A DNA stretch of 64,000 bases from Ginglymostoma cirratum (GCA_024137785.1 JAHRHZ010000270.1:31998461-32062460); one strand, 5' to 3'; counted from the first letter of the stretch, positions 2,102 to 54,854 are shown. The notes: generated by a model not told the origin, from the sequence alone. Numbers and translations are program-made.

Positions 2102-2668
2102 CAGAAAGATTCTACACACCCCGACACACTCATCACACTACCCTACATCAGGAACACGTCAGAACTCACCACAAGACTTCTACGACTGCTGGGCATCAGA
2201 GTGGCACACAAACCCACATCAACCCTACAACAAGTGCTCACCCGAACTAAAGAACCACTCCCCACCATGGACAGGGCCAATGTCATCTACAAGATCCCCT
2301 GCAGAGACTGCGAGAAACACTACATCGGACAAACAGGAAGGAAACTAACAACAAGAGTACACGAACACCAACTGGCTACAAAAAGACACGACCAATATTC
2401 TCTCATCTCAATCCACATGGACAAGGAAAACCACAACTTCCACTGGGACAACACCAAGATCCTGGGACAGGCTAGGCAGAGACAAGCACGAGAATTCCTG
2501 GAAGCATGGCACTCCACGAAGCAGGCTATTAATAAACACATTGAACTTGACCCCATATACATTCCACTACGGAGGAAACCCGGAAGTGAGGCAATCCATC
2601 ACAACAGACCCCAGAGTTTAAAAGCCAGGCGGGAAAACACACCGATGCTTCATCCGAGGCTGCACTGA
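2102..2668 (+). pseudogene. 5'-truncated PLE ORF: RT-EN linker plus GIY-YIG endonuclease
   Basis: Open frame ...ITLPYIRNTSELTTRLLRLLGIRVAHKP...NVIYKIPCRDCEKHYIGQTGRKLTTRVHEH...REFLEAWHS...IN. It shows the VIY/YIG motifs, CxxC, and conserved R, E and N. Confidence 0.9.
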
Positions 2669-2703
2669 GGATGTTACCAAGCATGGTAACGAAATGTCTG
2701 CGG
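2660..2703 (+). ncRNA. Minimal type-I hammerhead ribozyme, PLE family B
   Basis: Stem I ctgca/tgcgg; core CTGAGGA (2665-2671); stem II GTTACC-aagcat-GGTAAC; GAAA-TG-TC, where TG is a likely CpG-decayed CG. Confidence 0.75.
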
Positions 2704-3049
2704 AACAACAAACCAGCTTGGCGAGCCAACCAACCTCAACATCCACAACCCGAGCTACAAATCTACTCCAAAACCATAATTAAACCATTAGACAAGAGCA
2801 AACATTGGCTCAGGTATTTATTATTGTTCTAACATTGTCATATATTATCTATCATAATACCATACCTCCTTTCCTCTTAAATGTCCTGTCTACATTATTA
2901 GTTTTCTGTTGCCGTGTTTGATTCCCATTTTCTGCCAAATTATAATTGAGTTTTTGAGTTCAGTTATAAATCTGAACATAGGAATTTATAATTTGATAGA
3001 TCTAGCAACTCAGAACTAGGTAGCCATGAGGTGCTATTGGCCATCCGCG

Positions 3050-5400
3050 ACAAAATTGTGTTGAACTGCAGTCGGTGATCTTAGCATAGTCCCCACTCTA
3101 CTATAGCCATCAAGCCAGGGGATCAACCTAGGTTTAATGATGAGTGCAGGAGAATGTACTTAGCAGCATCAGGCATACTTAAAAATGAGGCGTCAACATG
3201 ATGAAGCTACAAAACAGGACTACTTTGTGTGCCAAACAGTGAGAGACAGGGCTAAATGATTCCATAACCAATGGATCATATCCAAGCTCTGCAGTCCTCC
3301 CACATCCAGTCATGAATATTAGTGGACAATTAAACAATTGGAGAAGGCGGCTTCACAGATAACCTTATCCTTAATAATAGGGAAGCCCTGCACATCAGCC
3401 AGAAGTGCAAAGTGGATGATCTATTTCAACCTCCTCAAGATGTCCCTGGCATTAACCAATTCAATACAATCCACATGAAGATCAAGAAACAGCTGAAGGC
3501 ATGTATATTGCAAACATTTGGCAATAATGCTGAACACTTGTGCTTCAGAACTAACTGCACTCTTAGCTAAGCTTTTGGATACAGCTACAACATAAGCATT
3601 TATTCAGCAATGTGGAAAATCACCCAGGTGTGTTCCATGCGCAAGAAGCAGGAGCAACTCAACCCGGCCAATTACTGCCCTGGATCATCAACAAAGTGAT
3701 AGAAGGTGTCGTCAATATTGCTAGCAAGCAACACTTGGCAAGGAATTACTTAATGATGCTCAGTTTGGGTTCCAACAGGACCACTTGGTTCCTGGTATCA
3801 TTACAGCCTCGCTCCAAACATGAACAAAACAGCTGAACACCAGAGATAAGGCAAGCGTGTCTGTCCTTAACACCAGCATTTGACCAAATATGGCATCAAG
3901 CAATCATCTCAGGCCCCAGGACATCATTGCAGGAGTACCTCAGGGTAGTGTCCTGGAGTCAACCATCTTCAGCTGCTTGATCAGTGATCTTCCCTCCATT
4001 TTTAGGTCAGAATGGGGATGTTTGCTGATGGTGCAGCAACACCTAGACAACATTCAGGTTTGGGCTGACAAGTGGCAAATAATCCTTGCACCACACAAGT
4101 GCCCTGCATTGTCCATCTCCAACAAGACAGAATCTAGCAATCAGCCTTTGAAACTCGGGAACAAAAACGGAAGTCATTCCGCAATTACAGAATCCACAGT
4201 TCTTCTGGTTTTTATCAGCCTTTGACACTCAAGAGCTTTAATATCGCTTAGTTCCCACTATTAACATCCTGGGAGATGGCATTGACCAGAATTAGAAATA
4301 GACAGGTCATATACGTACTGTGGCTAGAAGAGCTGGTGAGAGGCTGAGAATTCTACAGAGAAATCTCACCGCCTGTTTCCCAAAAACCTGTCTGTCATTG
4401 ACAAGGCACAAGTCAGCAGTGTGATGGAATAGTCTCCACTTTCTACAAGTGCTCCAGCAACACTTGAAGCATGACACCATCGAGGGCAAAGCTGCCTGTA
4501 TGAACGGCATGTCATTCACCAACTTTAATATTCACTCCCTTCACCACCAAAATACAGTGGCAGCAGTGCGTGCCATCTACAAAGTGTACTGCAGTAACAT
4601 GCCAAGGCCAATTCTGCAGCACCTTACAAATCCTGGCCAATTAGCGAAGGCCTGAAAGGTTATGCCCGAAACCAGAGTGGGCAATCTTCGAGCAGCCAGA
4701 CCTGATGGGTCTTTCAGGACAGGGCAAGCACAAAGTGGGCGTAGCACAAGACACAGGCAGGCAAGGACAAGCCTGGGTTTGCCCTGTAAAATGAGGCTGG
4801 CTTGTGTATTGGAGATGACAACGTGTGAAACCAAGTTCATTCCAGCCTGGTCAAGTTTAACTGCACGGTAGTACCTCGTCCTAGTCTGGCAGCCAGAGTA
4901 GTTTAGATAAAGATTGTGATAAAGACTTAATGTTCTGATTAGTAGAGTAATTAATATAAGAACCTTGAATTTTATCATGAAAGAGCAGGGTTTTAGATAA
5001 TGTTTGGCCATATGGATTCTTTTGTGTCTTCAGTCTATTTTGTGAATAAAATTGCTTTGAATTGCAAGTCAACTCTGACTCTTTTGTTCATCTCAAATAT
5101 TGTACCTGAGTAAAACAACTCGGCAAAGTATCCAAAGAATGGACAACAAAATCCAATGGCTTCTACCTCCCAGAAGGACAAGGATGACAGGTACATGGGA
5201 ACTCCACCACCTGCAAGCTCCCTATCAAATCACACACCCATTCTGACTTGGAAATATATTACCGTTCCTGCAATGACACTGGGTCAAAATTCTAGAACTC
5301 ACTTCCTCACCGAACTGAGATTGAAAGATTGCAGAGGTTCAAGAATGCAGCTCATTATGACCTGCTCCCAGGCAATTAGGGTTGGACGACTACCATTGGT
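3050..5400 (+). mobile_element. Degenerate CR1/L2-group LINE, interrupted by a solo LTR
   Basis: RT remnants GVPQGSVL..IFSCLISDLP and IQVWADKWQI..PHKC. LINE sequence resumes at ~5155 after the LTR. Confidence 0.75.
4634..5148 (+). mobile_element. Solo LTR, 515 bp
   Basis: TG...CA termini; 6-bp TSD AAATCC at 4628-4633 and 5149-5154; internal AATAAA near 5045; inserted cleanly into a LINE. Confidence 0.75.
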
Positions 5401-5404
5401 CTAG

Positions 5405-5596
5405 AGATAACAAAGTGTGGAACTGGAGGAACACAGCAGGCTGGGCAGCATTATAGGAACAGAAAAGCTTTTCTGAAGAAGGGTCCTGACCGGAAACATC
5501 AACTTTCCTGTTCCTCTGATGCTGCCTGACCTGCTGTGTTCTTCCAGCTCCACAATGTGTTATCTCTGACTCCAGCATGTGCAGTTTTTGCAATCT
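5405..5596. mobile_element. Miniature fold-back PLE (family A related) with a decayed hammerhead at the apex
   Basis: Arms are mutually inverted. 15-bp TSD CTACCATTGGTCTAG at 5390-5404 and 5597-5611. Core reads CTGAAGA-A-GGGTC-ct-GACCG-GAAA-CA-TC. Confidence 0.85.
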
Positions 5597-5699
5597 CTAC
5601 CATTGGTCTAGCTTGTGATTCCAATAACCCTGAGCAATTAAACAAAGAAAACTGTAAAAAAAACTCAAAATAAACCTAAGAATATTTATTCAATATATT

Positions 5700-7462
5700 A
5701 GATTTGGGTGAGCCTTCTAGGGGGTCTGAGGGACATGGACTATGGCAGCATGTGGCCAAATCGGAGAACAGATCCGGCAATGTCCATCTCAAAGTGAGAG
5801 CAACCCATAATATCTTGTGTGCTTTTCAGAAGTGGAGCAGTGAGATTCTTGCTAAACAGGAATGGATTGCCAATTGGTCTCAATAAACGCTTTGACACAC
5901 CAAATCACCTCATTACCAATCAGCCTCACATGTTACCAAACTCATGAAACAAGTCTATTGTTCAGAAAATTTGAGATTGAAGCCAAAGCCCACACCAGGT
6001 GGATTCAGCTCTCCACCTGCTCCATGTGGCTTCCACACTGGAAACTCGGCAGCAACATCTTGGGGCATGCTCTGTGCACACAATCTGTGCACACCTCATG
6101 CCCATGGACATTGACATCTGGCATTTGCCAGATTCTAATAAGGACCCTCATGGCTCTCTTGCGATCCACTTTTGGATGCTTCTGCATTTCAATGCTGCTT
6201 CCCAGGCTGTACCAGCTACTATCATTGTAATGCTGCAGGCAAAGACACTATGCACTCGGGGATACAGCCGGGCCGGGCTGCATACCAGAGCTCTTTGCTT
6301 GCTGTCATAACACACACTATCTCAGCCTTCCTGGATGATCACAATCTCCCAGCCTTGCATCGCAGTTTTGTGCTTTGCCCCTCAATTGAGGTACACATTA
6401 CTTTTGTCTTGTTCTTTAGTGTAGACACAAAGCCAGGGAGCTTCGGGTGGTCCGAGTCTGGATCTCAACACGTAAGAGGTGGGAGCCAGAGGCAGGCACG
6501 TATCACAGGAGACAAATGTTGGTGACATAGCTACTACTGTAGGAAAGAGATGCCCTGAATGAGTTTTTTTTCCTATTCATTTGTGGAATGTGGGCATCAC
6601 TGGCTGGCCAGCATTACTTTCTTATTCCTAGTTGCCTTTGAGAAGGTGGTGGTGAGCTGCCTTCTTGAACCGCTTCAGTCCTCCTGCTTTGGGTTGACCC
6701 ACAGTGCAATGAGGGAGGAAATTCTAGGATTTTGACCCAGCGACAGTGAAGGAATGTCAACATGATTCCAAGTCAGGATGGTGAGTGGCTTGGAGAGGAA
6801 CTTGGATGTGATGGTGTTCCCACATGTCTGCTGCCCTTGTCCTTCTAGATGGAAGTGGTCGTGTGGAGTGAGTAGGCAGTGCAGAGGTCATGCAGAGTCA
6901 GGGTTGGGGTGGATGATGGCAAGTGAGGGAAGATGTTACAGGCAATAATGAGTTTTAGAACATAAGCCTTGGCGGAAGGTGGGTAGAGAATGAGAGTGAG
7001 TAAGTGAGAGAAGAGAAGAAGATGGCACTTTCTCTAGCAGAGTGGACAAGGTCATTCTACTACTTCTTTCCCCATTCTATAGGACCTCCAGGACTCACCT
7101 CAAAGTAGGCACCAATTTTCCCCTGTCTGCCATGTCTGGGTAAATGTCAGGATTTGTACAGGGCAGCTCCAGGTGGATGATGCTTTTTCCAGGTGGACTG
7201 GTGGGCTTTCAAAGATGGAATGAGTGCAATGGATGCCTGCCTTTTGGGGGATATTGCTCGGTGGTGAGTTGTTTCAAGGATGGTGGTCGGTAAGGTGGGG
7301 CCAGAACTGAACATGCGGGACACCATAGGGACCTTGTAGGTAATTACTGAAGTAAATTTGCTAATGTAGGGTGAGAGAACCCACTAAGCCTCGTAGCTAA
7401 AAACTGTCAAAAAAAACCCCAACGCAACTCAGACTTAGATAAAAAGACACAAGATTCAGCCC
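5700..7462 (-). mobile_element. Probable Harbinger-derived non-autonomous DNA element (decayed Myb/SANT ORF start)
   Basis: Minus strand 7030-7135 reads MADRGKLVP...LEVL...NDLVHSAR, resembling 34815-35050. The end at ~7462 reads GGGCTGAATCTT, which is TIR-like. The left boundary is uncertain. Confidence 0.45.
6563..6865 (-). mobile_element. 3' end of the CR1/L2-group LINE family seen at 5155-5400
   Basis: Reverse-complement similarity to 5155-5400, with an A-rich tail at 6563-6572. Confidence 0.7.
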
Positions 7463-7774
7463 TTTTCATCTTTTTAAAGCCTTCACAGGATTTCTAATTG
7501 AAAGCCTCTTAATATCATTGGTTTCAGTTTGAGTTAGCTTCCAAAGCTGTGACTGCATGAGATGCATGACAGAACCAGAGGTGTAATTTAGATTCTATTG
7601 TCTTAGCATGCACGGTAAACCTAAATTACTGGAATGCCTTTAAATGAGATTTATTGATGCAATTTTTTTCAATATTTAGAACTTTCTGCTCAGTAAGTTT
7701 TTGTAAATCTAAAGTTTTATTGCTCCTCCAGCGGATACAAAAGATCCAATGGCACCATTTTGAAGAACGTGACA

Positions 7775-8825: not shown

Positions 8826-10393
8826 TAACAACGCAACTGCATTAGAAACAGTTAAAAAATGGCTGTAACCATTGACTTGCCTTGTCCAATACCATGGGCA
8901 ATTCATTAATACACATTAAAGCAAATACTTTTGAAGAATTAATTTTGTATTTTAACTTACAAAGCGGGTTGTTTTGCTTTTTACTGGCTTGATGGTTAAG
9001 AACTTGTGCGATTTCTTGGTTTACTTTCCACTGAAAACTTAGGTATTTAAACTGCGTTGTATGTTTTGCATTCTTCACATTAGTGTTGAAACTTAAAGAA
9101 TTTAGGACTTCCATGTCCTTCAGTCAAAATATCCATGTCAAAAATTAATTGAACACTAGGTAACCAATTTGAATCTAGATGTTAATCATATGTATTTTGC
9201 CACAGATATCTATCAATACCGACCTCTCCACACAAATATTTCAGATCTAATCTGTGTCCATTTTACTTATACTTATATCTTGCAGCCAAAGAGGCTTTGT
9301 TTTTAAAAAGTTTTCAGTACAGGAAGATCAGCAGTGGGAATTTTGTATTATTATGCCTTTTCCTTAACTCCTGCTCAGATGGGTTGAATTAACATGCACA
9401 CACACAAACACACATACATGGTTGAACCCAAGAGTTTCTTGATTTGCAAGTCTAATGCAAACTTACATCCAATGAACTGAAGGGTTGAGCTCTGATTTTC
9501 TATAGTTTATCAGCACTTATTTTTCACTAGCTCTGCAACCGATAAAATGGTCGGTGTATCGCATTAAAGCCTTCACTGTTTTATTTTCTCAATGCAAATG
9601 CTTCTTTTTGGGAGGTGAATGGTTATGGCAATAATTAGCACAAGAAAACTCATACAGAAACAGCTTCAACCCTGAGTGACGTAATTGACACTAATGTTCA
9701 AGAAATAAACTGAACATGCCTTAATTCAGTGTTCCCGAAAGAAACCGCAATGCTAGTTCTTTATGGCTTTTCTTCTGGAATACTATAGCACCTTAAATGA
9801 TTTCAGGTCGAAGGTACCATCTGCTAGACAAGACGTTGAACAAGATGTAATTGAATCCATGACACTATTTTGAATAACAGCTTGGGGAGCTTGCTACAAT
9901 GTTCTGGTTTACTTTGAGATACTCTCTAAATAACCTGATCAGAGATGTTACTATACATTTTTGGAGCATGTGGAACGTGAACCCAGGACACCTGGTTCAG
10001 AGGTAAGGACACTGCAGCACAAGAGCCTCTTCTGGCCTATCTTTAACCATCAGCCAAAGAAAAAAAAATCATGTGTTCATTCCCACATTATTGTTTGTGA
10101 AATCTTGCTGTTAACAATTTGGTTGCTGTGCTTTCTCAATGATAACAGTGTTGGCACTCGAAGTACTTCATTGGTTGTAAAACACTCTGGGATGTCTTGA
10201 GGTTGTGAAAGGCTGTATATGAACGTAAACATTTGTTTCTTTTCTTTAATGAGGTAATGTTACTCTTTTAGGTGGTCCAGTTACACATTCCATACCATAC
10301 ATCGAAATCTATGTCTAGGTTGCTAACTGTGGCGGTTAAGAAATTCTTACATGGTTTTCATATATTCCCATTTCCCATGCATTCTTAAACTAA

Positions 10394-10491
10394 GTCAGAA
10401 GTCACACGACGCCACGTTATAGTCCAACAGGTTTAGTTGAAATCACAAGCTTTTGGAGCTACAGCCCCTTCACCAGGTCCAACCTCCACAT
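10394..10491 (-). mobile_element. Short PLE family C copy (decayed hammerhead plus terminal segment)
   Basis: Similar to 22240-22425. 14-bp TSD CATTCTTAAACTAA at 10380-10393 and 10492-10505. Minus strand reads CTGGTGA-A-GGGGC-tgta-GCTCC-AAAA-GC-TT-GTGA. Confidence 0.8.
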
Positions 10492-16515: not shown

Positions 16516-17021
16516 ATGAAGGTGGTGAAAGCAAATAAATTAATAATTTTTTAAAGAGGACTGCACAAAAACCTGGAAAAGGAAACAAAAATCGCAAGGC
16601 TGTGGAGAAAGTACCATGGGTGGGGGCAGGGTGGACTAATCTGATAGATTAGTCAAAGAGATAGCACTAATGTAATGGGCTAAATGGCCTCCACATGGGC
16701 TATTTGATTCTCTGATCCTTCATCTCATCACAGTTGCGTGTGACCGGCTTCACATTAACTCACATGAACAATTGGAGATCCCTGTAATGGACGACAAATC
16801 CGAAGGAATCTTGCAGTTCTGTCTGGAATGCCAGGGAATACAGGGCCAGGGTGGTTGTGAAATGGCCAGTGAAGCAGTGACTATTTGATTAGTGGTTGAC
16901 AAATAGTTAATTACGCTTCGATAGTTCATCAAATTGTTGGTACAGTTAACTCATTGCAATAGAAATTTGACCGTTCTGCATACTTGTTAATTGGAAGACA
17001 GAAAAACACATAAAAATGCCA

Positions 17022-17674
17022 GATAACAAGGTGTAGAGCTGGATGAACACAGCAGGCCAAGCAGCATCATAGGAGCAAGAAAGCTTGACGTTTCGGGCCT
17101 AGACCCTTCATCAGAAATGGGGGAGGGGAAGAGGGTTCTGAAATAAATAGGGAGAGAGGGGGAGGCGGATAGAGGATGGATAGAGGAGAGGATAGGTGGA
17201 GAGGAGGCAGACAGGTCGAAGAGGCGGGGATGGAGCCAGTAAAGGTGAGTGTAGGTGGGGGGGTAGGGAGGAGATAGGTCAGTCCAGGGAGGACGGACAG
17301 GTCAAGGGGGCGGGATGATGTTAGTAGATAGGAGATGGGGGTGGCGCTTGAGGTGGGAGGAGGGGATAGATGAGAGGAAAAACAGGTTAGGGAGGCGGGG
17401 ACGAGCTGGGCTGGTTTTGGGATGCGGTTGGGGGAGGGGAGATTTTGAAGCTTGTGAAATCCACATTGGTTCCATTGGGCTGCAGGGTTCCCGGGCTGAA
17501 TATGATTTGTTGTTCCTGCTGCCTTCGGGTGGCATCACTATGGCATTGCAGGAGGCCCAGGATGGACATGTCGTCTGAGGACTGGGAGGGGGAGTTGAAA
17601 TGGTTCTCGACTGGGAGGTGCAGTTGTTTGTTGCGAACTGAGCGCAGGTGTTCTGCAAAGCGGTCCCCAAGCCT
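17022..17674 (-). mobile_element. 5'-truncated Neptune-type PLE (family A): GIY-YIG C-terminus plus terminal repeat
   Basis: LGDRFAEHLRSVRNKQLHLPV..HFN peptide is nearly identical to 54280-54568. 11-bp TSD TAAAAATGCCA at 17011-17021 and 17675-17685. Confidence 0.92.
17084..17117 (-). ncRNA. Minimal hammerhead ribozyme, family A, intact core
   Basis: ttt-CTGATGA-A-GGG-tctagg-CCC-GAAA-CG-TC-aag. Confidence 0.75.
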
Positions 17675-18257: not shown

Positions 18258-18900
18258 TGTACCACACAATTATCATAGATTCTCCCTTAGGTCATGTCAC
18301 AGTCTGTCCTTTGCTCCATTTGGAATTTCTCTTTCTCTGATCATACGCTCCCAATTTAAGAATCACTAACTCCATCTCAGCTACACTCTGTGTAATCAGT
18401 CCATTGTGTTTGCAAATTCACAGAAATGCTGATCCCCTCCTGTCAGAAAGTGAAATAAAGCCATGCCCCTTGTTGACCAATAGAGTGTTCAATACATGAA
18501 AACATTCTCAATGTGTAATTCTCTTGAACAGAAAGCACGTTGATAGCATTCCTTAAGCCTTTCATTCATCATTTTGTTGCTTGCATTGAAGAGCGATCAT
18601 TTATTTGATGAAATGTTAGCTGGGACACATTGAAAAGAGAAAGACTTGAATTCGTAGCACAGTTTTCAGAATCAGTGGACGTGTCAAAATACTTTACAGG
18701 CAATGACATGTATTCACGTGCAATGCGGAAAATGCAGCAGCTAATTTTCACACAGTAAGTTACAACAGACAGCAATGCGATAATGCCCAGGTAATCTGTT
18801 GACTTATGGATAAATATTAAATGGAACACCAGAAATAACTAAACTGCTTTTTTTTGAAATGGTGCTATGAGAGGTAACTTAGGTGAACAATCATAAGGGT

Positions 18901-19000
18901 GAGTTCCGAGGAAGGGTCACCGGGCCTGAAACATTAACTCCTTTTTTCCTTCACAGGTGTTGCCAGACCTGCTGAGTTTTTCCAGCAACTTTGTTATTGA
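18901..19000 (+). mobile_element. Short PLE family D copy beginning at a decayed hammerhead
   Basis: CCGAGGA-A-GGGTC-accg-GGCCT-GAAA-CA-TTA followed by a tail matching the reverse complement of 41757-41820. Confidence 0.75.
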
Positions 19001-21690: not shown

Positions 21691-21855
21691 CAGGCTAGGA
21701 GGAACTGCAGATGCCGGAGAATCCGAGATAACGAGGTGTAGAGCTGGATGAACACAGCAGGCCAAGCAGCATCAGAGGAGCAGGAAGGCTTGTGCTCTTG
21801 CTCCTCTGATGCTGCTTGGCCTGCTGTGTTCATCCAGCCCTACACCTTGTTATCT
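21691..21855. mobile_element. Miniature fold-back PLE (family A) lacking the ribozyme core
   Basis: Near-perfect ~60-bp arms; 10-bp TSD CAGATATTAT at 21681-21690 and 21856-21865; tail on the left arm only. Confidence 0.88.
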
Positions 21856-22239
21856 CAGATATTATAGGGTGTTAGTCTTTGGAAGTGATTCTGAGTCTGA
21901 GCTGAGCAGCTGAGCTGACCACAAACTGAGAATTGCTCAATATACTGGCAAGAGGAGAAAAATTAAACTTCAGTTAAAAGGGCAGAAATTAAAAAAATAA
22001 ACAAGTTGCAGTTTAAAGTGGGAGTTGGCTCCATAAGACGTGCCACGAGGCAGAACAGGAAAGAAAAATTAAGAATGCCACGAGAGAAAACTCAAATATT
22101 CTGCCTACCAACAACTATGCAATTAGCTCCTAGGTAGGTGAACAGTTGAGAGTGTGAATGTTTTGGCAGAAACCATCAGGCCTCTGGAGAACGTTGTTTT
22201 TGCTCAGTGGTAAACCCATCTCAAGCCTGAAGAAAGCCA

Positions 22240-22425
22240 TGATGTGGAAGTGCCGGTATGGATGGGGGTGGACAAAGTCAGAACTCACATGACACCAGGG
22301 TAGAGTTCAACAGGTTCATTTCAAATCACAAGCTTTCGGATCGTAGCCCCTTCTTCACCTGATGATGGGGCTATGCTCCGAAAGCTTGTGATTTCAAATA
22401 AATCTCTTGGACTATAACCGGGTGT
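22240..22425. mobile_element. Miniature fold-back PLE (family C)
   Basis: Inverted arms; 13-bp TSD CTGAAGAAAGCCA at 22227-22239 and 22426-22438; longer tail on the left arm. Confidence 0.85.
22355..22391 (+). ncRNA. Minimal hammerhead ribozyme, family C
   Basis: Stem I TCAC/GTGA; CTGATGA; stem II GGGGC-tat-GCTCC; GAAA-GC-TT with palindromic AGCT in place of stem III. Confidence 0.75.
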
Positions 22426-27686: not shown

Positions 27687-27815
27687 AAATGCAAAATGCT
27701 GCAGATGCTGGAAATATGAAACAAATGCAGAGAATGCTGGAGAAACTCAGCAGTTCTGGCAGCACCTGTGTAGAGATAACAGCGTTAATGTTTCCAATCG
27801 GTATGACTCTTCTTC
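27687..27815 (-). mobile_element. Old PLE terminal segment with a decayed hammerhead at its 5' end
   Basis: Tail tgctgcagatgctgga...ctcagcag..tggcagca resembles families A and D. Minus strand reads gaagaagagtcataccgattggaaacatta. Confidence 0.6.
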
Positions 27816-28752
27816 CTGTCAGGGTTGGACCTAAGAGAACGTAATGCAGCAACTTCGGAGGGAGACAAATTAGAGTGGGTGAGTGCAGCAGAGAAATTAA
27901 GGTGGCTGATGTCACCTCAGCAATTTTCTATGAAGATATCAAGTGGAGGTTAAAGGCCAGGGGGAGGGTAAGTGTTGGAGATGGGTGCAAAGATCTGCTT
28001 GACAGGGAGAGTACTCACTTCCAAGGAAGTAGGCACAGAGGTGAAACTGACGGAAGAGTTTGGTGTCAAGTCGTGCCCAAAATTCATGTAGAGATTAAAC
28101 TAAGTTCTTTTCTAAGCACAAATTGTTCAGCTTCAGAGAGGGGAAGTTCAGAGGATATGGCAAATACATAGTAAGAGGTGGGATTTATAAACATTTCTAA
28201 TATCTCCAGTCCAGACCCTGAAATAAGTTATCATCTTTGGATGAAAAGCTAAATTCACACTTGGCTTTGTTCTAAACAGGAAAATGAAAATGGACTGCAG
28301 CATTTTTCAAAGCACAGTCTCTACTTGTTAAGATGCCATGTGCTTTTCAGGGATCAGCAGGGTCTGTTTAGAGAACCGTTCTAGTAAAATCCATTTGTAA
28401 TATACCCGTAACCCATACAAATTCCTGGCAATTCTGTCTTAATGTAATGCTGTAGCTGATCTGTTTTCTGCAGGTTTGAGGGTATCCCGGCTAAATTGAA
28501 ATTCTGTCTGTGCAGTTTCTTTTCATTATTCAGGATTCTGGGCTTTGATGGCTTTTCCAGTTCTGTTGAAATCAATAAGTATGAACTGATGGGCTTACTT
28601 TACAAAATGCAAGTTATGTTATGTCAATGCCTGGCAAAGTTTACCCACTAAACATCTCTAGGTTTGATTTCAGTGTGCGATGAGTTTGTCACTTTCAGTC
28701 AGACATTAGTGAAGGGTGCCCACTACTCAGGTCAGTGACCCTCAGGTTCATT

Positions 28753-34134: not shown

Positions 34135-34260
34135 AGAGATAGTAAGAACTGCTGACGCTGGAGTCAGAGAAAACACAGTGTGGAGCTGGAGGAACACAGC
34201 AGGCCAGGCAGCATCAGAGGGGCAGGAAAGCTGATGTTTCGGGTCGGGACCCTTTTTCAC
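34135..34260 (-). mobile_element. Short PLE (family A related) starting at a decayed hammerhead
   Basis: GGGTC-cc-GACCC-GAAA-CA-TC followed by the full tail. Confidence 0.8.
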
Positions 34261-40950: not shown

Positions 40951-41756
40951 ACATATCAACGATTGCCTGTAGGTTGTGGATTTCCTTCTCTGCCTCTTTC
41001 CCGCTCTCTCCCCTCTCCTTCAAATCTATGTCTTTGACCAAGATCTTGGTTACTTCTGCTAATATCTATTTGGTGTTAATTTGTATCAGATAATGCTCCT
41101 GTGAAGTACTTTGGGAAACTTTGCAATGTTAAAGGCCTAATATAACTGTAATTTAGTGTTGATGTTGTTGCCCTCCTAAAGGATACTTCTGACTTGCATC
41201 ATGACATAACATTTACATATTTGGCGATAATGCATGCTAACATTTAGAGCACTGTCTGGGGATTATTCTAAAGTATTTTTATGAAAGGAATCAAAACTCT
41301 AAAAGGGTTAAATAAAACATAAATTGAATGAATGAAAGTGCTGAGTATAAAAAGATAAAGGAGATTCATAGTTATAACAAATTCTATATTTGATCATTCG
41401 CCGGTCTCCAGTGTGCTTCAGTAATAATCTTATGTTTTTACACTGTGCAACACTGATATGGACTGTCATCTAGTGATAGGGGTTTGACATTACATCTTTT
41501 GTTACATGTATAGGTTTATCTAAGTTTGTTTACCTAAGGCTGTTAATTGTGACTGGTCACTGTTCTGGAGATTTCATTTCACTCCTTCCCCTGCCCCTAT
41601 GTTTTCTTCCCCCTCACCATTGGATGTATGGCATGTTCATCTTAGGCAGTCCATGAGTTGTCCCTGAGAAGGTGATAGTAAACTGCCTTCTTGTGTAGGA
41701 ATACCTACAGTGCAGTTGATGTGGAGGGAATAAATGTTGAAGATAGTTAATGGGGT

Positions 41757-42276
41757 CAAAAACAAAGTTGCTGGAAAAGCTCAGCAGGTCTGGCAGCATC
41801 TGTGGAGGAGAAAACAGAGTTAACGTTTCGGGTCCGGTGACCCTTCCTCAGAACTGATGGTGGCTGGGAAGACGTCAGTTTATATGCAGAAAATAGGGAG
41901 GTGGGTGGGGTAGGGAGTAAACGATAGGATAGAGCCCAAAGAGAGAGAAAGACAGTTGGACAGACGGACGAGTTGCTAACGATCAGGCTGGGAGGGTGAA
42001 TGTTGTTAATGGGGACTGTTAGTGACTAACAACAGTGGGTGTGTAATGGCAGGCTATGTGGTAACAAGGCCTGGTGTGTGGGGTGGGGGCTGGGACATGG
42101 GAGAGTTTAGGCCCTAAAATTATTGAACTCAATATTGAGTCCGGAGGGCTGTAGGGTCCCCAAGCGGAAGATGAGGTGTTGTTCCTCGAGCTTGAGCTGG
42201 GCTTCACTGGAACACTGTAGCATGCCAGAGACAGAGATGTTGGCCAGGAGGCAAGGTGGTGCATTGAAGTGGCGAT
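41757..42276 (-). mobile_element. 5'-truncated PLE family D copy inserted in a LINE
   Basis: GIY-YIG C-terminus (LEEQHLIFRLGTLQPSGLNIEF frame). 11-bp TSD GTTAATGGGGT at 41746-41756 and 42277-42287. Confidence 0.88.
41816..41856 (-). ncRNA. Minimal hammerhead ribozyme, family D, intact core
   Basis: agtt-CTGAGGA-A-GGGTC-accg-GACCC-GAAA-CG-TT-aact. Confidence 0.78.
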
Positions 42277-43144
42277 GTTAATGGGGTGTTGATCAAGTGG
42301 ACTGTCTTGCATTGGATGGTAGCAAGTACCTTGAGTGTTGTTGGAGTTGCACTCATTCAAGCAAGAAGGAAGTATTCTATCAGACTTCATTCATAACTTT
42401 TCATCATGTTATTAAAAAAACTCCACTTTACTACAGAGCAATAAAAGTGTCCATTATCCAGGCCCTTTGAAGCTTTAATACCTCAACCACAATCCACTTG
42501 AAACTGTTTAACCTTGTGTAAACAAATGTTGTGAAAATATTAGAGTTCAGACAACCAGAGCTGTCGATCAATGCTTGGGTGCAGATCTTATAATTTTATG
42601 ATAATCCAGCCAAGAATACATAATGAGGTGTGAGGGTTTTATAGCTTGGTTTGGGCTGAAAGAGGGAGGTAAGATGGGGGCACACCTTGGCTTGAGGCAA
42701 TGGTGGTCTATAAGAGTTGTTTGGGAAATACTTTGGCATGGGGGCACATAATGGTCCATAGAGGGGAGGAGGCATACCTCGTCATGGAGGTATGATGGAA
42801 CAGAGAGTTGTTTGGGGCGCCTATCTTGGCATGTGGAAGGGCATGAGGAGGACACTTTGAAGAAAATTTCAAAAGGTTCCCTCACAAAGTCAATGGCTCT
42901 AAGATGTCTCTGAGATGCTGTCAATCACAACTCTTTACAAATCTGACATGACTCAATTAAAACTGTGGAGCAGTCGGAAATGTCTATCACTGCAATGGAG
43001 CTGGCCAATGAGGAACAGTGGTAAGGCTTCATAACCCCAAGGAGCTGCAACTTTGAAAGGTCCCAGTGAAAATCAGAAAGCCTGGGAATGAAGTTAGGAA
43101 TCCTGGAATCGGGTCCTGGCCACCATTTTTATAGAACTTCTGAG

Positions 43145-44590
43145 TCATAGAGATGTACAGCCATGGAAAGGGACCCTTCCGTCCAACTCGTTCATGCCAA
43201 CCAGATATCCTAAATTAATCTAGTCCCATTTGTCAGCATTTGGCCCATATCCCTCTAAACCCTTCCTATTCATATACCCATCCAGATGCCTTTTAAATGT
43301 TGTAATTGTACCAGCGTCTACCACTTCCCCTGTCAGCTTGTTCCATACACACACCACTCTTTGCATGAAAAAGTAGCCCCTCACGTCCCTTTTAAATCTT
43401 TCTCCTCTCACCTTCAACCTAGTTTTGGACTCCCCCACCCCAGGGAATATATCTTGGCTATTTACCCTATCCAAGCCCCTCATGATTTTATAAACCTCTA
43501 TAAGGTCACCCCTCAGCCTCTGATGCTCCAGGGAAAACAGCCTCAACCTATTCAGCCTCTCCCTACAGCTCAAACCCTCCAACCCCCACAACATCCTTGG
43601 AAATATTTTCTGAACCTTTCAAGTTTTACAACATCATTCCTATAGCAGGGAGACCAGAATTGCACGCCATATTCCAAAAGGGGCCTCATCAATGTCCTGT
43701 ACAGCCGCAACATGACCTTCCAACTCCTAAACTCAATGCACTGACCAATAAAAGCAAGCTTACCAAGCTTTTTCTTCACTATTCTGTCTACTTGCAATGC
43801 CACTTTCAAGAAACAATGAACCTGCACTTCAAGGTCTCTTTGTTCAGCAACACTCCCCAGCACCTTGCCATTAAGTGTACTGCCCTGATTTGCCTTTCCA
43901 AAATGCAGCACCTCATATTTATCTAAATTAAACTCCATCTGCCACTCCTCAGCCCATTGGCCCATCTGATCAAGATCCCGTTGTACTCGGAGGTAACCTT
44001 CTTCGCTGTCCACTGCAACTCCAGTTTTGCTGTCATCTGCAAACTTACTAACCAAACCTCCTATGTTCACAGCCATATCCATTTATATAAATGATGAAAA
44101 GCAGTGGACCCAGCACCGATCCTTGTCGCACACCGCTCGTCACATGTCTCCAGTCTGGAAAACAACCCTGCACCAACACCCAGAGATATCAAGAACTGCA
44201 GATGCTGCAGTCAGAGGCAACACAGTGTAGAGCTGGAGGATCACAGCAGGCCAGGCAGCATCAGAGGAACAGGAAAGTTGACATTTTGGGTCAGGACATT
44301 TCTTTAGAAATGGGGGAGGTGGATGGGAGCTTAGAAAAAAATAGAGAGAGGGGGGTGGGGCTGGGGAAAGGTAAGTGGGATGGTGATAGGTGAGTGCAGG
44401 TAGGGAGTGGTGGGGATAGGTCAGTGGGATGGGAGGGGCGGCTAGGTGGGAGAGAAGATGGACAGGTTGGTGTCAGGTCAAGGAGGTGGGATGTTACCTT
44501 CACCACCACCCTCTGTCTTGTACCTTCGAGGCAGTTCTGTATCCAAATGGCTAGTTCTCCCTGTATTCCATGTGATCTAATCTTGATAAC
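43145..44590 (-). mobile_element. Relatively young CR1 (HER1-like) LINE 3' portion, interrupted by a PLE fragment
   Basis: SKFADDSK, WQMEFNLDK, RPLLEYGVQFWSP and RLRGDLIEVYKIM motifs. Confidence 0.9.
44182..44495 (-). mobile_element. PLE family A related 3' fragment nested in CR1
   Basis: Tail and purine-rich segment resemble 17022-17310. Imperfect flanking repeat caccaNcaccc. Confidence 0.8.
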
Positions 44591-47911: not shown

Positions 47912-48091
47912 TTATTTAACTTTCTGGTTGACGTTTCTGTTTTTCTTTCGGTTCTGGAATTGGAGTGGAGCACTTTTCATTTCAGCCATAATGTCAACAT
48001 CCAGCGATTCCAGATCTGGTTCAAGCTCTTCAAACTCTGCTTCAAAATTTTCCATTGGCTCCAAACATGCTAATATAATGGACCCAACCTT
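47912..48091 (-). CDS. Candidate terminal coding exon of an unidentified gene (KVGSIILACLEPMENFEAEFEELEPDLESLDVDIMAEMKSAPLQFQNRKKNRNVNQKVK*)
   Basis: Acceptor attattttgacag; protein-like acidic block followed by a basic block; gtaagt donor at 47860, 51 nt after the stop. Confidence 0.4.
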   Translation of the reverse strand, partial: KVGSIILACLEPMENFEAEFEELEPDLESLDVDIMAEMKSAPLQFQNRKKNRNVNQKVK

Positions 48092-48892: not shown

Positions 48893-49340
48893 ATGGTGGC
48901 TCAATGGTAAGCACTGCTACCTCACAGCACCTGGGTCCCAGGTTCAACCCCAGCTTAGGGTTTTTTATTCATTCACGGGATGAGGCTAGGAAGCATTTAT
49001 TGCCCATCCCTAATTGCCCAGAGGGCAGTTCAAAGTCAACCACATTACCGTGGGTCTGGAGTCACATGTAGACCAGACCAGGTAAGGATGGCAGTTTCCC
49101 TGTCAATTTCCTCCAGGTGCTCTGGTTTCCTCCCACAGTCCAAAGATGTGCACGTAAAGAGGATTGCCCATGCTAAATTTCACATAGTGATCATGGGTGT
49201 GTAGGTTAGGTGCATTAGCCACAAGAAAATGCAGGGATAGGGTAGGGGGATGGGTCTGTATGGGATGCTCTTCAGAGGCTCGGTGTGGACTTGTTGAGCC
49301 GAATGGCCTGTTTCCACACTGTGGGGATTCTATGGTTCTA
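48893..49340 (+). mobile_element. HE1-like V-SINE with an antisense SINE tail nested at ~48961-49102
   Basis: Head 48893-48960; V-domain and tail 49105-49340; the insert matches the reverse complement of the 56460-56610 tail. Confidence 0.75.
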
Positions 49341-50569
49341 TGTGTGTCTGATTCCTTTCTGACCAGTGCTAGAGCAGACATCTGTGTGATATTCAACAGG
49401 TGAATGATGTTTATATCATCTAAATGTATTTGCTTGAGATCAGCCATGGCTTCTGCTTCATGATTCACAAACGCCTACATTTTTGCTATTTGCTGAAACC
49501 AAGTAATAAATATACCAAACTTTCAATTTGAGCAGTCTGTAACTTAATTTCTTCCATCTCAGTAAAAGTGAGTGCTTCCTGAGACAGTACAAAAACAGAC
49601 CATTTTCATTTTATTTGAGGCATATTTTCCCACATTTTATGATTCATAGAATCCTTATAGCGTAGAAGCAGGCTATTCGGCCCATCAAGTGCACACCAAT
49701 CTTCTGAACAATATTTCACCTAGACCTACCCTATCCCCAAAACCCTGCATTTCCCGTGGCTAAGCCACCTAACCCGTACATTCCTGGACATTATGGGCAA
49801 TCCACCTAACTTGCTCATCTTTGGACTGTGGGAGGAAACTGGAGCATTTGCTCACTCATTCTCAAATTTTATTTTGCGAATATTCTGCAAATAAAACCAT
49901 AATCATCCCAATAAAAAAATGCATATATAACAAAGGACTAGAAATATCACACACAACTGACATGAAAAACTGAATTCTACTTCACAGGTTTCTGAATATC
50001 TGTGGAAAAGTGAAGGTTGAGAGGTGACCTAATAGAGGTATTTAAGATTATTCATGTATTTTATTGAGTAAACATTCAGATGTCTTCATTTGTAGGGAAT
50101 CCAATAATGTAAGGTAGTGACAAATAAATCCTATAGGGAATCCCTTGGCGAATAGTTAGAATGTAGAACTTGCTACTAATCACGGTAACATTTAACAGAT
50201 TGTTGCATTTACAGGAAACTAGATTAAAGGGGGAAAGAAATAAAAAGTGCCGTTATAAGAGTGAGGTGAAGTTTCATCTGGAGTATCAATACCAACATTG
50301 ATAGTAGGCAGATATTGATGTGAAACTTTAACACAGTTCCTCCTTTCACAGATGCTGTTTGGCCTGATGAGTATTTCCAACCCTTTTTGGATTCAATCCT
50401 ACATGGACTTGTCAGTATTACAAATTCCATTCCTATGATTCCCTCTCAAAAAACCTTGAAATGGTGTAGCACAAAACAGGCAGCAGGACTCATTAAGCCT
50501 ACAGTTATGTTTTCGTTCCACAATAGCTTGTGGAACACAATTCTAATTGCCAATCCCAACCCCCTATCC

Positions 50570-50652
50570 CTTCTGAGGAAGGGATACTCGATCCAAAACG
50601 TTAACTCTGATTTCTCTCCACAGATGCTGCCACACCTGCTGAGCTTTTCCAA
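50570..50652 (+). mobile_element. Short PLE family D copy starting at a decayed hammerhead
   Basis: ttCTGAGGA-A-GGGAT-actc-GATCC-AAAA-CG-TTA-actctg followed by the tail. Confidence 0.75.
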
Positions 50653-50719
50653 TGATTCCTATTCAAATATCTTGTGGTTGATTGGCGCCTTCATTTGCTT
50701 GTGGGCTGAGTGGAAGTGT

Positions 50720-51640
50720 TCTGCAGAATCTGTAGATGGTCTCCCCACTATAGAGGACATGGTACTCTGGGCAGCAAGAATACTTAAATGAAGCTCCTGG
50801 TAGATCACTGTTGCAGCTAGAAAGAAGTTGAGATTTTGGCTGGTCTTCAGTAAAGAGGTGGCAGGTCAGGTGCTGCATCTCCTCTGCTAACACTGTAAAT
50901 TGCCTTGGGCTTGTGAAATGGTGTTGGGAGTGCCAAAATGGGAACAGGTCCTTTGGAGGAATGAGGCGAAGGGTTAAAGCAGAAGTTCAGGGAAAAAACT
51001 AAGATGGAAAAAACATAGTGGAGAACAAAAGGAAAAGGAAGAAATATCTGAAGCACTGCAGTGAAAGGTGGCATCGTCAGAACAAGTGCAACAAAGTTGA
51101 AGAAACTAGGACAATGGAATAGAGTCTTTGATGCTTTGATGAAATGTAATGAGGGTAGCTGCGGGAATCAGTGGGCTTGTAGTGGATATTGGTTGTTGGA
51201 CAATCTCTAGAAAGGGAAACAGAAAAATTGACAAAGGGAACAGTTGGATATAGACCATGAGAACCATTGGAACATAGAAGGTGAGATAATGGCAGACAGC
51301 AGAAGGAAAATTGATGAAACATTTAAATTCAGGGCAAGAACAGAGGACGCCAAAAACATTACCAAGGAAAGATGTAAGAGCAAAGACATGAATATGGCTG
51401 AAACAAAATATATTCCAGATAGCTTACAAAAATACAGGCATATAGCTAGGACTGCATGGAGGTTACAGGAATTAATGTGGGAGTTCAATGTGAGAACCAG
51501 GCTGGGAGGGTGTTGGTGGATGGGGACTGTTTGAGGCTCTCTTCGGCAAAGAAACAAAAAGCTTTCAGACCAATCTGATGAGGGGTGGGGTTGCAGAGAC
51601 TTTGGACATCTGTGGCAAAAAGGAAACTGTTAGGACTAGG
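50720..51640 (-). mobile_element. Old, fragmented PLE RT/EN remnant
   Basis: TNIHYKPTDSRSYPHY parallels TDVHFKPTDSHSYLEY of the young copy; LVLTLN segment present. Boundaries approximate. Confidence 0.6.
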
Positions 51641-52545
51641 AAACTTTTTTTTATTTATTCATTCATGGGAAGAGGGCATCATTGACTGGGCTAGCATTTA
51701 CTGACCATTCCTAATTTCCCAGATGGTAGTTAAGAATCAGCCATGTTGCTGTGGGTCTGGAGTCATATATCAGCTGGAGCAGGGAAGGCTTCCATTTTCC
51801 TTTATTAAAAGACATTAGGGATAAACTAAAGGAAATTGTTAAAGTAAGGAAGGGCATTGCAAGGACTTTGGAGATGGGTAATAAAAGACTGGACAAGGGG
51901 AGAAGGAATGAGGTTGAAACAGAAAGAAATCAGTTCTGTGAGACATAATTCTCTTTGTCTTTTCCTATCACAGACCTTTCTTTTTGTTCTTTCCTGCTGT
52001 ACCCTCCAACGCCACCCCCAATTACCTGACTACCTCCTCCCCAACCAGCCCCAAGTCTTTATCTACCTCTACACTGGTTTAAAACATGTCACAACTCTAT
52101 TTTCCAATTCTGCTAATAGGCCATTGACCTGAAATTTAACTCTGCATCTCTCTTTCCTCAGATGCTGCCAGATCTGTTGTGTATTTCCAGAATTTTCTGC
52201 TTGTGGCTCAGATTTCCACCATCAGCAGCATTTTGCTTTTGTAGCCTTTGTCTGCCCCTCATTCAATTTTTCACAATCCTCATCATTATCCCCCAAATTT
52301 GGTTTAATCAGCAGATTCCAGTTCAGATTTCTTAAATTCTAGTTCCAGGTCATTGTATTAAAACAAATAATGGTGACCACAGCACAGGTGCCTTTTCATT
52401 AATTTTTAGATTAGGTTTTAGAGCAATATTTTATTGTGATGAGAATGGGATGGGGGATATGAGAATGGACAATGAAAATTCCTAGATAACAAGCATGGGG
52501 CTGGATGAACACAGCAGGTCAAGCAGCATCATAGGAGCAGGAAAG

Positions 52546-52579
52546 CTTGACGTTTCAGGCCTAGACCCTTCATCAGAAA
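52546..52579 (-). ncRNA. Minimal hammerhead ribozyme, family A (left arm)
   Basis: CTGATGA-A-GGG-tctagg-CCT-GAAA-CG-TC-aag, with one C>T change giving a G-U pair. Confidence 0.7.
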
Positions 52580-53163
52580 TGGGGGAGGGGAAGAGGGTTC
52601 TGAAATAAATAGGGAGAGAGGGGGAGGCGGATAGAGGATGGATAGAGGAGAGGATAGGTGGGGAGGAGGCAGACAAGTCGAAGAGGCGGGGATGGAGCCA
52701 GTAAAGGTGAGTGTAGGTAGGGGGGTAGGGAGGAGATAGGTCAGTCCAGGGAGGACGGACAGGTCAAGGGGGCGGGATGATGTTAGTAGATAGGAGATGG
52801 GGGTGTGGCTTGGGGTGAGAGGAAAAACAGGTTAGGGAGGTGGAGATGAGCTGGGCTGGTTTTGGGATGCGGTTGGGGGAGGGGAGATTTTGAAGCTTGT
52901 GAAATCCACATTGATGCCATTGGGCTGCAGGGTTCCCAGGCTGAATATGATTTGCTGTTCCTGCAGCCTTCGGGTGGCATCACTGTGGCATTGTAGGAGG
53001 CCCAGGATTGACATGTCATCTGAGGAATGGGAGGGGGAGTTGAAATGATTCGCGACTGGGAGGTGCAGTTGTTTGTTGCGAACTGAGCGCAGGTGTTCTG
53101 CAAAGCGGTCCCCAAGCCTCTGCTTGGTTTCCCCGATGTAGAGGAAGCCACAACGGGTACAGC

Positions 53164-53563
53164 NNNNNNNNNNNNNNNNNNNNNNNNNNNNNNNNNNNNN
53201 NNNNNNNNNNNNNNNNNNNNNNNNNNNNNNNNNNNNNNNNNNNNNNNNNNNNNNNNNNNNNNNNNNNNNNNNNNNNNNNNNNNNNNNNNNNNNNNNNNNN
53301 NNNNNNNNNNNNNNNNNNNNNNNNNNNNNNNNNNNNNNNNNNNNNNNNNNNNNNNNNNNNNNNNNNNNNNNNNNNNNNNNNNNNNNNNNNNNNNNNNNNN
53401 NNNNNNNNNNNNNNNNNNNNNNNNNNNNNNNNNNNNNNNNNNNNNNNNNNNNNNNNNNNNNNNNNNNNNNNNNNNNNNNNNNNNNNNNNNNNNNNNNNNN
53501 NNNNNNNNNNNNNNNNNNNNNNNNNNNNNNNNNNNNNNNNNNNNNNNNNNNNNNNNNNNNNNN
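53164..53563. other. Assembly gap (400 N)
   Basis: Run of N at the centre of the inverted repeat. Confidence 1.
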
Positions 53564-54568
53564 AACACTTCTCTCTCCTTCCTGGACCTCTCTGTCTCCA
53601 TCTCGGGCAACCACCTAGAGACAGATGTCCATTTCAAGCCCACTGACTCCCACAGCTACCTGGAATACACCTCCTCCCACCCACCCTCCTGCAAAAATGC
53701 CATCCCCTATTCCCAATTCCTTCGCCTCCGCCGCATCTGCTCCCAGGATGAGACATTCCAATCCCGCACATCTCAAATGTCCTCATTCTTCAAGGACCGC
53801 AACTTCCCCCCCACAGTGGTCGAGAACGCCCTCGACCGTGTCTCCCGCATTTCCCGGAACACATCCCTCACGCCCCGTCCCCGCAACAATAATCAAAAAA
53901 GAATCCCCCTCGTCCTCACATACCACCCCACCAACCTCCGGATCCAACGCATCATCCTCCGACACTTCCGCCATCTACAGTCAGACCCCACCACCAAAGA
54001 CATCTTTCCCTCCCCACCCTTATCTGCCTTCCGGAGGGACCACTCCCTCCGCGACTCCCTTGTCCGCGCCACACTCCCCTCCAGCCCCACCACACCCGGC
54101 ACTTTTCCTTGTAACCGCAGGAAGTGCTACACCTGCCCCCACACCTCCTCCCTCACCCCAATCCCAGGCCCCAAGAAGACATTCCACATCAGGCAGAGGT
54201 TCACCTGCACATCTGCCAATGTGGTATACTGCATCCGCTGCACCCGTTGTGGCTTCCTCTACATCGGGGAAACCAAGCGGAGGCTTGGGGACCGCTTTGC
54301 AGAACACCTGCGCTCAGTTCGCAACAAACAACTGCACCTCCCAGTCGCGAACCATTTCAACTCCCCCTCCCATTCCTCAGATGACATGTCCATCCTTGGC
54401 CTCCTACAATGCCACAGTGATGCCACCCGAAGGCTGCAGGAACAGCAAATCATATTCAGCCTGGGAACCCTGCAGCCCAATGGCATCAATGTGGATTTCA
54501 CAAGTTTCAAAATCTCCCCTCCCCCAACCGCATCCCAAAACCAGCCCAGCTCATCTCCACCTCCCTAA
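53564..54568 (+). CDS. PLE polyprotein C-terminal part: RT thumb, Cys-rich linker and GIY-YIG endonuclease (5' end lost in the gap)
   Basis: 334 stop-free codons: SFLDLSV, FKPTDSHSYLEYTSSHP, IPYSQFLRLRRICS, PCNRRKCYTCPH, FTCTSANVVYCIRCTRCGFLYIGETKRRLGDRFAEH, LQPNGIN. Confidence 0.92.
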   Translation, partial: NTSLSFLDLSVSISGNHLETDVHFKPTDSHSYLEYTSSHPPSCKNAIPYSQFLRLRRICSQDETFQSRTSQMSSFFKDRNFPPTVVENALDRVSRISRNTSLTPRPRNNNQKRIPLVLTYHPTNLRIQRIILRHFRHLQSDPTTKDIFPSPPLSAFRRDHSLRDSLVRATLPSSPTTPGTFPCNRRKCYTCPHTSSLTPIPGPKKTFHIRQRFTCTSANVVYCIRCTRCGFLYIGETKRRLGDRFAEHLRSVRNKQLHLPVANHFNSPSHSSDDMSILGLLQCHSDATRRLQEQQIIFSLGTLQPNGINVDFTSFKISPPPTASQNQPSSSPPP

Positions 54569-54820
54569 CCTGTTTTTCCTCTCACCTCAAGCCACACCCC
54601 CCTCTCCTATCTACTAACATCATCCCGCCCCCTTGACCTGTCCGTCCTCCCTGGACTGACCTATCTCCTCCCTACCCCCCTACCTACCCTCACTTTTACT
54701 GGCTCCATCCCCGCCTCTTCGACTTGTCTGCCTCCTCCCCACCTATCCTCTCCTCTATCCATCCTCTATCCGCCTCCCCCTCTCTTCCTATTTATTTCAG
54801 AACCCTCTTCCCCTCCCCCA

Positions 54821-54854
54821 TTTCTGATGAAGGGTCTAGGCCCGAAACGTCAAG
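54821..54854 (+). ncRNA. Minimal hammerhead ribozyme, family A (right arm), intact core
   Basis: ttt-CTGATGA(54824-54830)-A-GGG-tctagg-CCC-GAAA-CG-TC|aag. Predicted cleavage after 54851. Confidence 0.78.

Follow-up and report, generated by a model that had tools for sequence, protein, structure and literature searches.

The 64,000-nucleotide stretch of the genome of the shark Ginglymostoma cirratum analysed here (GCA_024137785.1, JAHRHZ010000270.1:31998461-32062460; hereafter the window) carries minimal type-I hammerhead ribozyme motifs, which lie in the pseudo-long terminal repeats (pLTRs) of four families of Penelope-like elements (PLEs), named A to D. A descriptor run on both strands, consisting of CUGANGA, a stem II of at least three pairs, GAAA, two bases, UH and a stem I of at least three pairs, returned six matches in the window, exactly those listed in an initial annotation of the same DNA, against a mean of 0.035 per window in dinucleotide shuffles (one match in 7 of 200 shuffles and none in the others); the cores and stems described there are thus present. 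With positions counted from C3 of the core as 0, family B is represented by the motif at 2660-2703 (+; stem I of 5 bp, stem II of 6 bp, predicted cut after 2698), family C by 22355-22391 (+; intact core, C3 at 22359, AGCU tetramer, CUU triplet, predicted cut after 22387) and family D by 41814-41855 (-; intact core, C3 at 41851, preceded by TCAGTT, predicted cut after 41822), while family A accounts for 17084-17117 (-; intact core, C3 at 17114, stem I of 3 bp, predicted cut after 17087), 52546-52579 (-; C11.1 decayed to U) and 54821-54854 (+; intact core, C3 at 54824, predicted cut after 54851). All six have one additional nucleotide between A9 and G10.1, as do 40 of the 41 descriptor matches in an unbiased sample of 748,590 non-N bases fetched irrespective of the motif (the window with its flanks plus five more blocks, another, the seventh, having been excluded as all N), where the reversed control gave a single match. 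G10.1-C11.1 is the commonest state in each of the four families, and the G-U variants that also occur are due to CpG decay. Helix III is replaced by a palindromic tetramer at 15.1-16.1, ACGU in A, B and D and AGCU in C, so that the earlier description of stem III stands at the level of families and fails for the B motif at 2660, whose AUGU is again a product of CpG decay. Core, G10.1-C11.1 pair and palindrome are all intact in four of the six motifs (C3 at 17114, 22359, 41851 and 54824). An Rfam scan reported no hammerhead family in the window at E<=5, nor around 54824 at E<=10, which agrees with the expectation that these motifs would be unannotated; the microRNA-like matches that it gave at 21748-21834 and 5432-5537 are head-to-head arms of insertions.

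The motifs are parts of insertions with recognizable ends. The motifs at 52546 and 54821 are the two head-to-head arms of a single young family A insertion (52485-54951), with 3' ends at +97 and about +127 and a 14-bp target-site duplication (52471-52484 / 54952-54965), and hence the six motifs correspond to five insertions. The C-terminal 317 aa of the family A open reading frame (ORF) are encoded at 53615-54568 (+) and comprise the thumb of the reverse transcriptase (RT), a CX4CxxC linker and a GIY-YIG endonuclease (PF01541, E=1.3e-05), the frame ending about 260 nt upstream of the hammerhead on the same strand. The insertion also contains a 400-N gap (53164-53563); similar gaps recur in head-to-head copies of the sample, at times between identical sequences, and the assembly of such hairpins is thus unreliable. 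The other A motif belongs to a 5'-truncated copy (17015-17673, -) made of the endonuclease end, the 3' untranslated region (UTR) and the pLTR, flanked by an 11-bp target-site duplication, and the D motif to a similarly truncated copy (41753-42280, -, upstream end approximate) with endonuclease end (49% identical to A over 53 aa), 3' UTR and pLTR. The C motif sits in a single head-to-head short insertion (22239-22425; 13-bp target-site duplication), whose arms would pair across the hammerhead. Family B contributes a single insertion of two head-to-head arms (1758-2776; 12-bp target-site duplication 1746-1757 / 2777-2788), with a decayed hammerhead in its left arm (1795-1838, -; A9 and G12 lost) and an ORF remnant (2063-2668, +) that encodes a GIY-YIG endonuclease without the cysteine linker. 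The TGA stop of this ORF is formed by U4-G5-A6 of the hammerhead core (2665-2671, +), so that the end of the ORF overlaps the ribozyme, and the same holds for most B loci examined. In total, the window carries 21 pLTR-bearing pieces, and target-site duplications of its A, B and C insertions measure 11-14 bp.

In all four families, ORFs with RT and GIY-YIG domains lie upstream of the hammerhead in sense orientation, only the endonuclease being seen for B, and the proposed placement of the motifs in PLE pLTRs is thereby borne out. A natural full-length family A copy (L197) has 1049 open codons with RVT_1, the CX4CxxC linker and GIY-YIG; its ORF is entered from the pLTR tail, and the first in-frame ATG of the A ORF lies behind this tail. 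Family A is very young, as all 125 scored genome matches, among 171,625 candidates, are identical across the last 317 aa, and the best copies of family B are about 90% alike. The four families had been called unrelated; their number holds, their independence does not. Indeed, ORF remnants in D copies are 54-58% identical to the A protein, and the A and D pLTRs have 45 nt in common behind the cut site (score 35 against a shuffle maximum of 23), although the same comparison for all family pairs gave no pLTR sharing beyond A and D. Family C shows matches of 25-37% to the A thumb and endonuclease in seven of nine longer loci, all broken copies that retain the linker, an earlier tblastn of the A endonuclease against two broken C copies having been not significant. 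The family B endonuclease is 39% identical to that of A over 69 aa (E=6e-09), its GIY-YIG profile match (E=0.046) lying below the cut-off, so that homologous endonucleases are found in all four families. A CX2-5CxxC linker before the GIY-YIG domain, the feature that separates Neptune/Nematis-type from Penelope/Poseidon-type PLEs (PMC8557442), is present in A and C and absent in B. By this rule alone, with D placed by its likeness to A and Neptune and Nematis not separated, A, C and D are classified as Neptune/Nematis-type and B as Penelope/Poseidon-type.

Genome-wide, the intact-core pattern with ACGT has 108,957 matches in the 4.36-Gb assembly (25 per Mb), compared with 55 for the reversed control, and the inference that the genome holds a very large set of such motifs is therefore right as far as number is concerned. 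Exact-pattern counts are 22,605 for one A 28-mer, 1,734 for B, 497 for C and 15,353 for D together with older A. In the sample, homology to the sequence 3' of the motif identifies 233 copies (129 of A, 81 of D, 12 of C and 11 of B), which extrapolate roughly to more than 1 million pieces in the genome, a figure with some double counting because inverted arms sometimes face an assembly gap. By comparison, about 9,000 minimal motifs are reported for Xenopus tropicalis and about 4,000 for the coelacanth (PMC4209133), and 126,247 canonical motifs for the axolotl, whose genome is much larger (PMC7229834).

The majority of copies are either single, truncated or CpG-decayed or lie trapped within long inverted repeats, and the commonest class consists of short solo or inverted copies of 100-135 nt. 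Each family has two positions for its 3' ends, about +94 and +118 to +132 for A and D, +85/+120 for C and +75/+110 for B, and 26 of 31 head-to-head pairs of A and D combine one short with one long 3' end. Exact target-site duplications of 13-16 bp flank 6 of 33 head-to-head pairs. Among 1,231 copies with the junction of tail and ORF, many of the 30 that were examined are short tandems in which a pLTR with 50-400 nt of ORF is followed immediately by a second pLTR piece. No head-to-tail arrays of hammerhead units are present in the window, and the direct tandems at examined loci are partial and include ORF sequence. Like canonical EN+ PLEs, these insertions thus show a pLTR with a hammerhead, partial tandems, inverted 5' copies and a tail of 30-40 nt, the last being known from other PLEs (PMC3846280).

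With 18 A and 2 D gap-adjacent copies excluded from the sample, the per-base frequency of 5' ends at -8 to +1 is 12-fold that of the remaining positions, with 37 of 88 scored ends in family A (p=2e-23) and 31 of 68 in family D (p=3e-19) falling in this interval. No excess of 5' ends is found at the predicted cut site in either family (A, 7 ends, 1.5 times the neighbouring positions, p=0.22; D, 4 ends, 0.9 times, p=0.68); a small bump in A (9 ends at +26 to +29) disappeared once the 18 gap-adjacent copies were removed. Family C behaves like A and D, as 12 of 30 copies chosen by downstream sequence only start at -10 to -1. The same boundary recurs inside tandems, where 11 of 33 direct junctions restart at -5 to -3 behind ORF sequence, which indicates that it is not determined by the host DNA. 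Similarly, of 11 pieces that reach from the ORF start to the core, seven begin at -3 to +2 and four beyond -75, with none between. The pile-up falls on sequences that all resemble a transcription initiator, CCATTTC (A), TCAGTT (D) and TCACTTC (C), with an A residue at -4, -4 and -7, respectively. In the window, the initiator-like CCATTTC lies at the start of stem I (54817-54824, +), and the A at 54820 is position -4, the commonest start of family A copies. In 12,574 A copies, ATTT is preceded by a non-template base. An extra T or a duplicated ATTTCTG is also frequent in copies that start at the A boundary, as though the enzyme slipped and re-copied at the template end.

Since A, D and C copies start at the hammerhead and not at the cut site, the RNA that is copied likely starts there and is likely uncut. 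The motifs are pLTR hammerheads of four PLE families, and we regard it as probable that in A, C and D the template RNA has its 5' end at the first bases of the hammerhead. In such a scheme, the endonuclease would make a staggered cut and both DNA ends would prime reverse transcription inside the pLTR, as seen in vitro for the anole PLE, where both target strands are cut and extended and RT starts at two internal sites (PMC11167929). The reverse transcriptase would start at +94 or +127, proceed for about 100-130 nt and run off the RNA 5' end at -4, at the initiator-like site; the cDNA would then either join the target, giving short solo or inverted copies, or jump to another template, giving partial tandems. 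The 5' hammerhead of the template would remain uncut, and uncut RNA is indeed the main substrate of the anole enzyme, hammerhead cleavage requiring protein (PMC11167929). Run-off cDNAs of this kind would carry the hammerhead at their front, so that hammerheads may be multiplied as passengers. For Penelope, the pLTR is known to contain an internal promoter that includes an initiator, although there it lies 46 nt upstream of an intron (PMC2377424). We lean, by a slight preference, to a more general formulation: in Neptune-type PLEs, the initiator would coincide with the first strand of the hammerhead, and a strong-stop-like cDNA of the uncut 5' end would insert or jump between templates, the genome recording about 1 million such events, with one family active now and the densest hammerhead load among those found in print.

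Several observations weigh against this explanation. Family B shows almost no pile-up (1 of 30 copies), 5' ends are spread over about 8 nt with end rates inside the motif also raised about 2-fold, and BLAST boundaries are uncertain by 2-3 nt. In full-length L1 insertions, an extra G at the junction serves as the signature of a cap (PMC11702581). Here, a G stands before the -4 start in 52 of the 100 first-listed A copies when 29 are expected (p=9e-7), and all four internal junctions starting at -4 carry a G absent from both templates, too few to rely on. Yet 11 of 16 inspected Gs can be explained by the inverted arm or a repeated 7-mer, a lone G is found at none of five solo junctions fixed by a target-site duplication, and family D has no G excess (1 of 4); the G excess is thus real, but its cause is confounded and it gives no more than a hint of a cap. 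Poly(A) reads of run X23 (42,286 and 27,036 reads) reveal neither a start site nor an end site, cover pLTR and ORF equally on both strands and lie mostly within other transcripts, and run X24 supplied 16 and 5 reads only. As 89% of reads continue into other sequence, passive transcripts would swamp any start signal.

A different origin of the boundary, at the level of DNA or enzyme, is unlikely, though the likeliest of the alternatives: the RNA would start further upstream, and either the endonuclease would trim the cDNA at an ATT-like site immediately ahead of the core or RT would fall off at the border of a protein-bound hammerhead. Within its own pLTR, the anole endonuclease has a preference for 5'-ATT-3' (PMC11167929), and the A boundary is ATTT; the mild rise of end rates over the whole motif and the missing RNA start in the poly(A) reads would also fit. 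However, D (AGTT) and C (ACTTCAC) pile up alike without ATT, the boundary is the same at internal tandem junctions, and RT would be expected to stall on entering a helix from its 3' side rather than after its unwinding.

The initial annotation itself had viewed these motifs as a very large set of self-cleaving RNAs, and the reading that goes with it, in which they are active and cleavage processes the transposition template into unit-length or circular RNA, appears improbable. What speaks for it, besides the 108,957 intact cores and the weak in vitro cleavage of dimeric minimal motifs (PMC4209133), is the conservation of pairing. In a tally of 228 classified copies (60 were unclassified), from a scan that required four stem II pairs and left stems I and III free, stem II reads G-C/U-A at pair 2, G-C/U-A/A-U at pair 3 and U-G/A-U/G-C/U-A at pair 4 across families, helix III alternates between C-G and G-C, and stem I differs at every pair while still being paired, so that pairing is retained in all three helices. 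Within families, only one-sided changes and decay are seen. The covariation in the stems to which the initial annotation had pointed as a check is hence found between families on both sides of stems I, II and III, in part imposed by the scan for stem II, but not within them. In 73 A-lineage copies found independently of the motif, core positions are conserved at 86-99%, and shared variants inside the A motif affect N7 and loop II as well as CpG sites and the U-G/U-A pair, the variation that distinguishes A subfamilies sparing the core. This pattern fits selection on source elements together with neutral decay of copies, although it is modest evidence, since the flanking tail is about equally conserved. 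Against a role of cleavage in transposition are the missing 5'-end excess at the cut site and the fact that no RNA read ends there. In addition, none of the left pieces of the 33 tandems, a sample skewed toward longer ones, ends at the cut site (+24 to +31), and strand transfer onto a cleavage-generated RNA 3' end is therefore unsupported as well. Moreover, the family A hammerhead fold (-2.0 kcal/mol) is not the one of lowest energy (-9.3 kcal/mol), most copies are monomeric, and the hammerhead of head-to-head copies, for instance C at 22239-22425, is masked by a long hairpin that spans it.

It is very doubtful that the short copies of 100-135 nt are independent non-autonomous elements, similar to SINEs, that owe their common 5' end to source genes of their own. 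They are the commonest class, their ends are defined, one haplotype is found in short copies only (4/0), and non-autonomous elements derived from pLTRs are known in the form of retrozymes (10.64898/2026.07.22.740005); nevertheless, each of the six commonest A haplotypes is shared by short and ORF-linked copies (short/long, e.g., 9/7, 3/8, 6/4 and 3/3), pieces running into the ORF have the same start, and unit tandem arrays are absent from the window. Finally, a splice acceptor at the boundary, with an intron ending at stem I and the spliced RNA being copied, as in Drosophila virilis Penelope, whose intron ends at helix I (PMC4209133), has hardly any plausibility and is largely excluded unless the first exon had only a few bases: D does carry acceptor-like features immediately ahead of the core (a branch-point-like CTGAC, a pyrimidine tract, CAG), but the upstream flanks of solo copies have no sequence in common, which argues against a shared first exon, A has no AG at the boundary and D ends lie mostly upstream of the AG.

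The presence of hammerheads in such elements was to be expected and is not in itself a discovery. Minimal hammerheads in PLE pLTRs were described by Cervera and de la Pena in 2014, including Neptune and Poseidon elements of fishes (PMC4209133), and the association is therefore already published, what is added here being its scale and the 5'-end pattern. The shark motifs share with those the type I architecture, CUGANGA with an extra nucleotide, G10.1-C11.1, a stem I of 3-5 bp and a palindromic tetramer for helix III, as well as the occurrence of many families per genome, mostly in single truncated copies with some close opposite-strand pairs. They differ in that about 109,000 intact cores are found here, whereas the available text of that paper presents an alignment without cartilaginous fish and reports no pile-up of 5' ends. 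Cleavage of the published minimal motifs is weak and occurs as dimers (PMC4209133) or with the help of protein (PMC11167929). PAc, the Poseidon element of Anolis carolinensis studied in the latter work, resembles the shark elements in that its pLTR hammerhead lies just before the ORF start, its two 3' ends are about 30-40 nt apart (the tail), both target strands are extended and no RNA ends are seen at the cut site; by contrast, A, C and D carry the cysteine linker and the first in-frame ATG of the A ORF is placed behind the tail. With Neptune/Nematis and Penelope/Poseidon PLEs (Craig et al. 2021, PMC8557442) they have in common RT followed by a C-terminal GIY-YIG, 5' truncation, partial tandems, inverted copies and a tail, but targeting of TA microsatellites was not noticed here and the target-site duplications of 11-16 bp are plain. 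Animal non-LTR retrozymes (PMC7229834; 10.64898/2026.07.22.740005) likewise have type I hammerheads, very many non-coding copies and ties to PLE pLTRs; theirs, however, are canonical and form head-to-tail arrays that give circular RNA, whereas those described here are minimal and dispersed as solo or head-to-head copies. The 2026 preprint on tandem retrozymes covers one chondrichthyan genome (10.64898/2026.07.22.740005).

A literature search found no report of shark PLE hammerheads or of 5' ends piling up at a hammerhead, although shark motifs may be contained in Lunse et al. or in the 2014 supplement. According to a review (PMC6765202), Lunse et al. dealt with dimer cleavage of minimal hammerheads. 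The parts of PMC6155905 and PMC12602865 that were available contain nothing on either subject. The function of PLE hammerheads and the way pLTRs are rebuilt are named as open questions in PMC8557442 and PMC2377424. On these, the insertion ends argue against the cut product as template for transposition and favour an RNA that has a defined start at the ribozyme. Family A, being very young and having natural full-length ORFs, offers a Neptune-type experimental system to complement the one Poseidon element that has been studied in vitro.

The other pLTR-bearing pieces in the window are older or shorter. The seven decayed copies mentioned in the initial annotation proved to be degenerate or truncated members of the same families. 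Besides the left arm of the B insertion, they comprise an A-lineage head-to-head short insertion (5404-5597; + arm from -3 with a decayed hammerhead, C3 at 5473, and - arm from +28; 15-bp target-site duplication), a family C short copy (10389-10481, -; start -5, decayed hammerhead with C3 at 10476), two family D short copies (18899-18999, +, start -7, decayed hammerhead with C3 at 18906; and 50571-50651, +, start -2, decayed hammerhead with G12 lost), an old D-like short copy (27699-27822, -) with a decayed hammerhead and an A-lineage short copy truncated at core +1 (34136-34259, -). An A-lineage copy with a decayed hammerhead at 44193-44350 (-) was absent from that list. Further pieces are a family A pLTR tail fragment from the region 3' of the hammerhead that is clipped by the window edge (1-47, +), an A-lineage head-to-head insertion without hammerhead core, whose arms start at +27 and +34 (21700-21860), and two old D-like pLTR tail pieces (50322-50389, +; 52126-52228, +).

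Other hammerheads in the sample belong to at least one additional family, with stem II GGGTA/TACCT, and to older B subfamilies in which the third pair of stem II shifts from U-A via U-G to C-G. Just behind the hammerhead, A and D have in common an in-frame ATG-CTG stretch (window 54824-54951; L197:3735-3850), which in one A variant is in phase with the main ORF and ends with TGA exactly at the tail end; it is possibly an upstream ORF or a site of read-through. In family D, acceptor-like sequences flank the hammerhead on both sides (41851-41890, -, and 41790-41815, -), where a pyrimidine tract with CAG precedes both the core and the ATG that lies behind it, and thousands of intronic copies could supply splice sites. 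Apart from PLEs, broken ORF pieces at 43220-44082 (-) and ORF pieces at 62374-63942 (+) have no Pfam match at E<=0.01; the former resemble the reverse transcriptase end of a CR1/L2-type LINE and the latter a pogo/Tigger-type DNA transposase. A GC-rich 30-bp tandem repeat of about six copies lies at 61204-61381.

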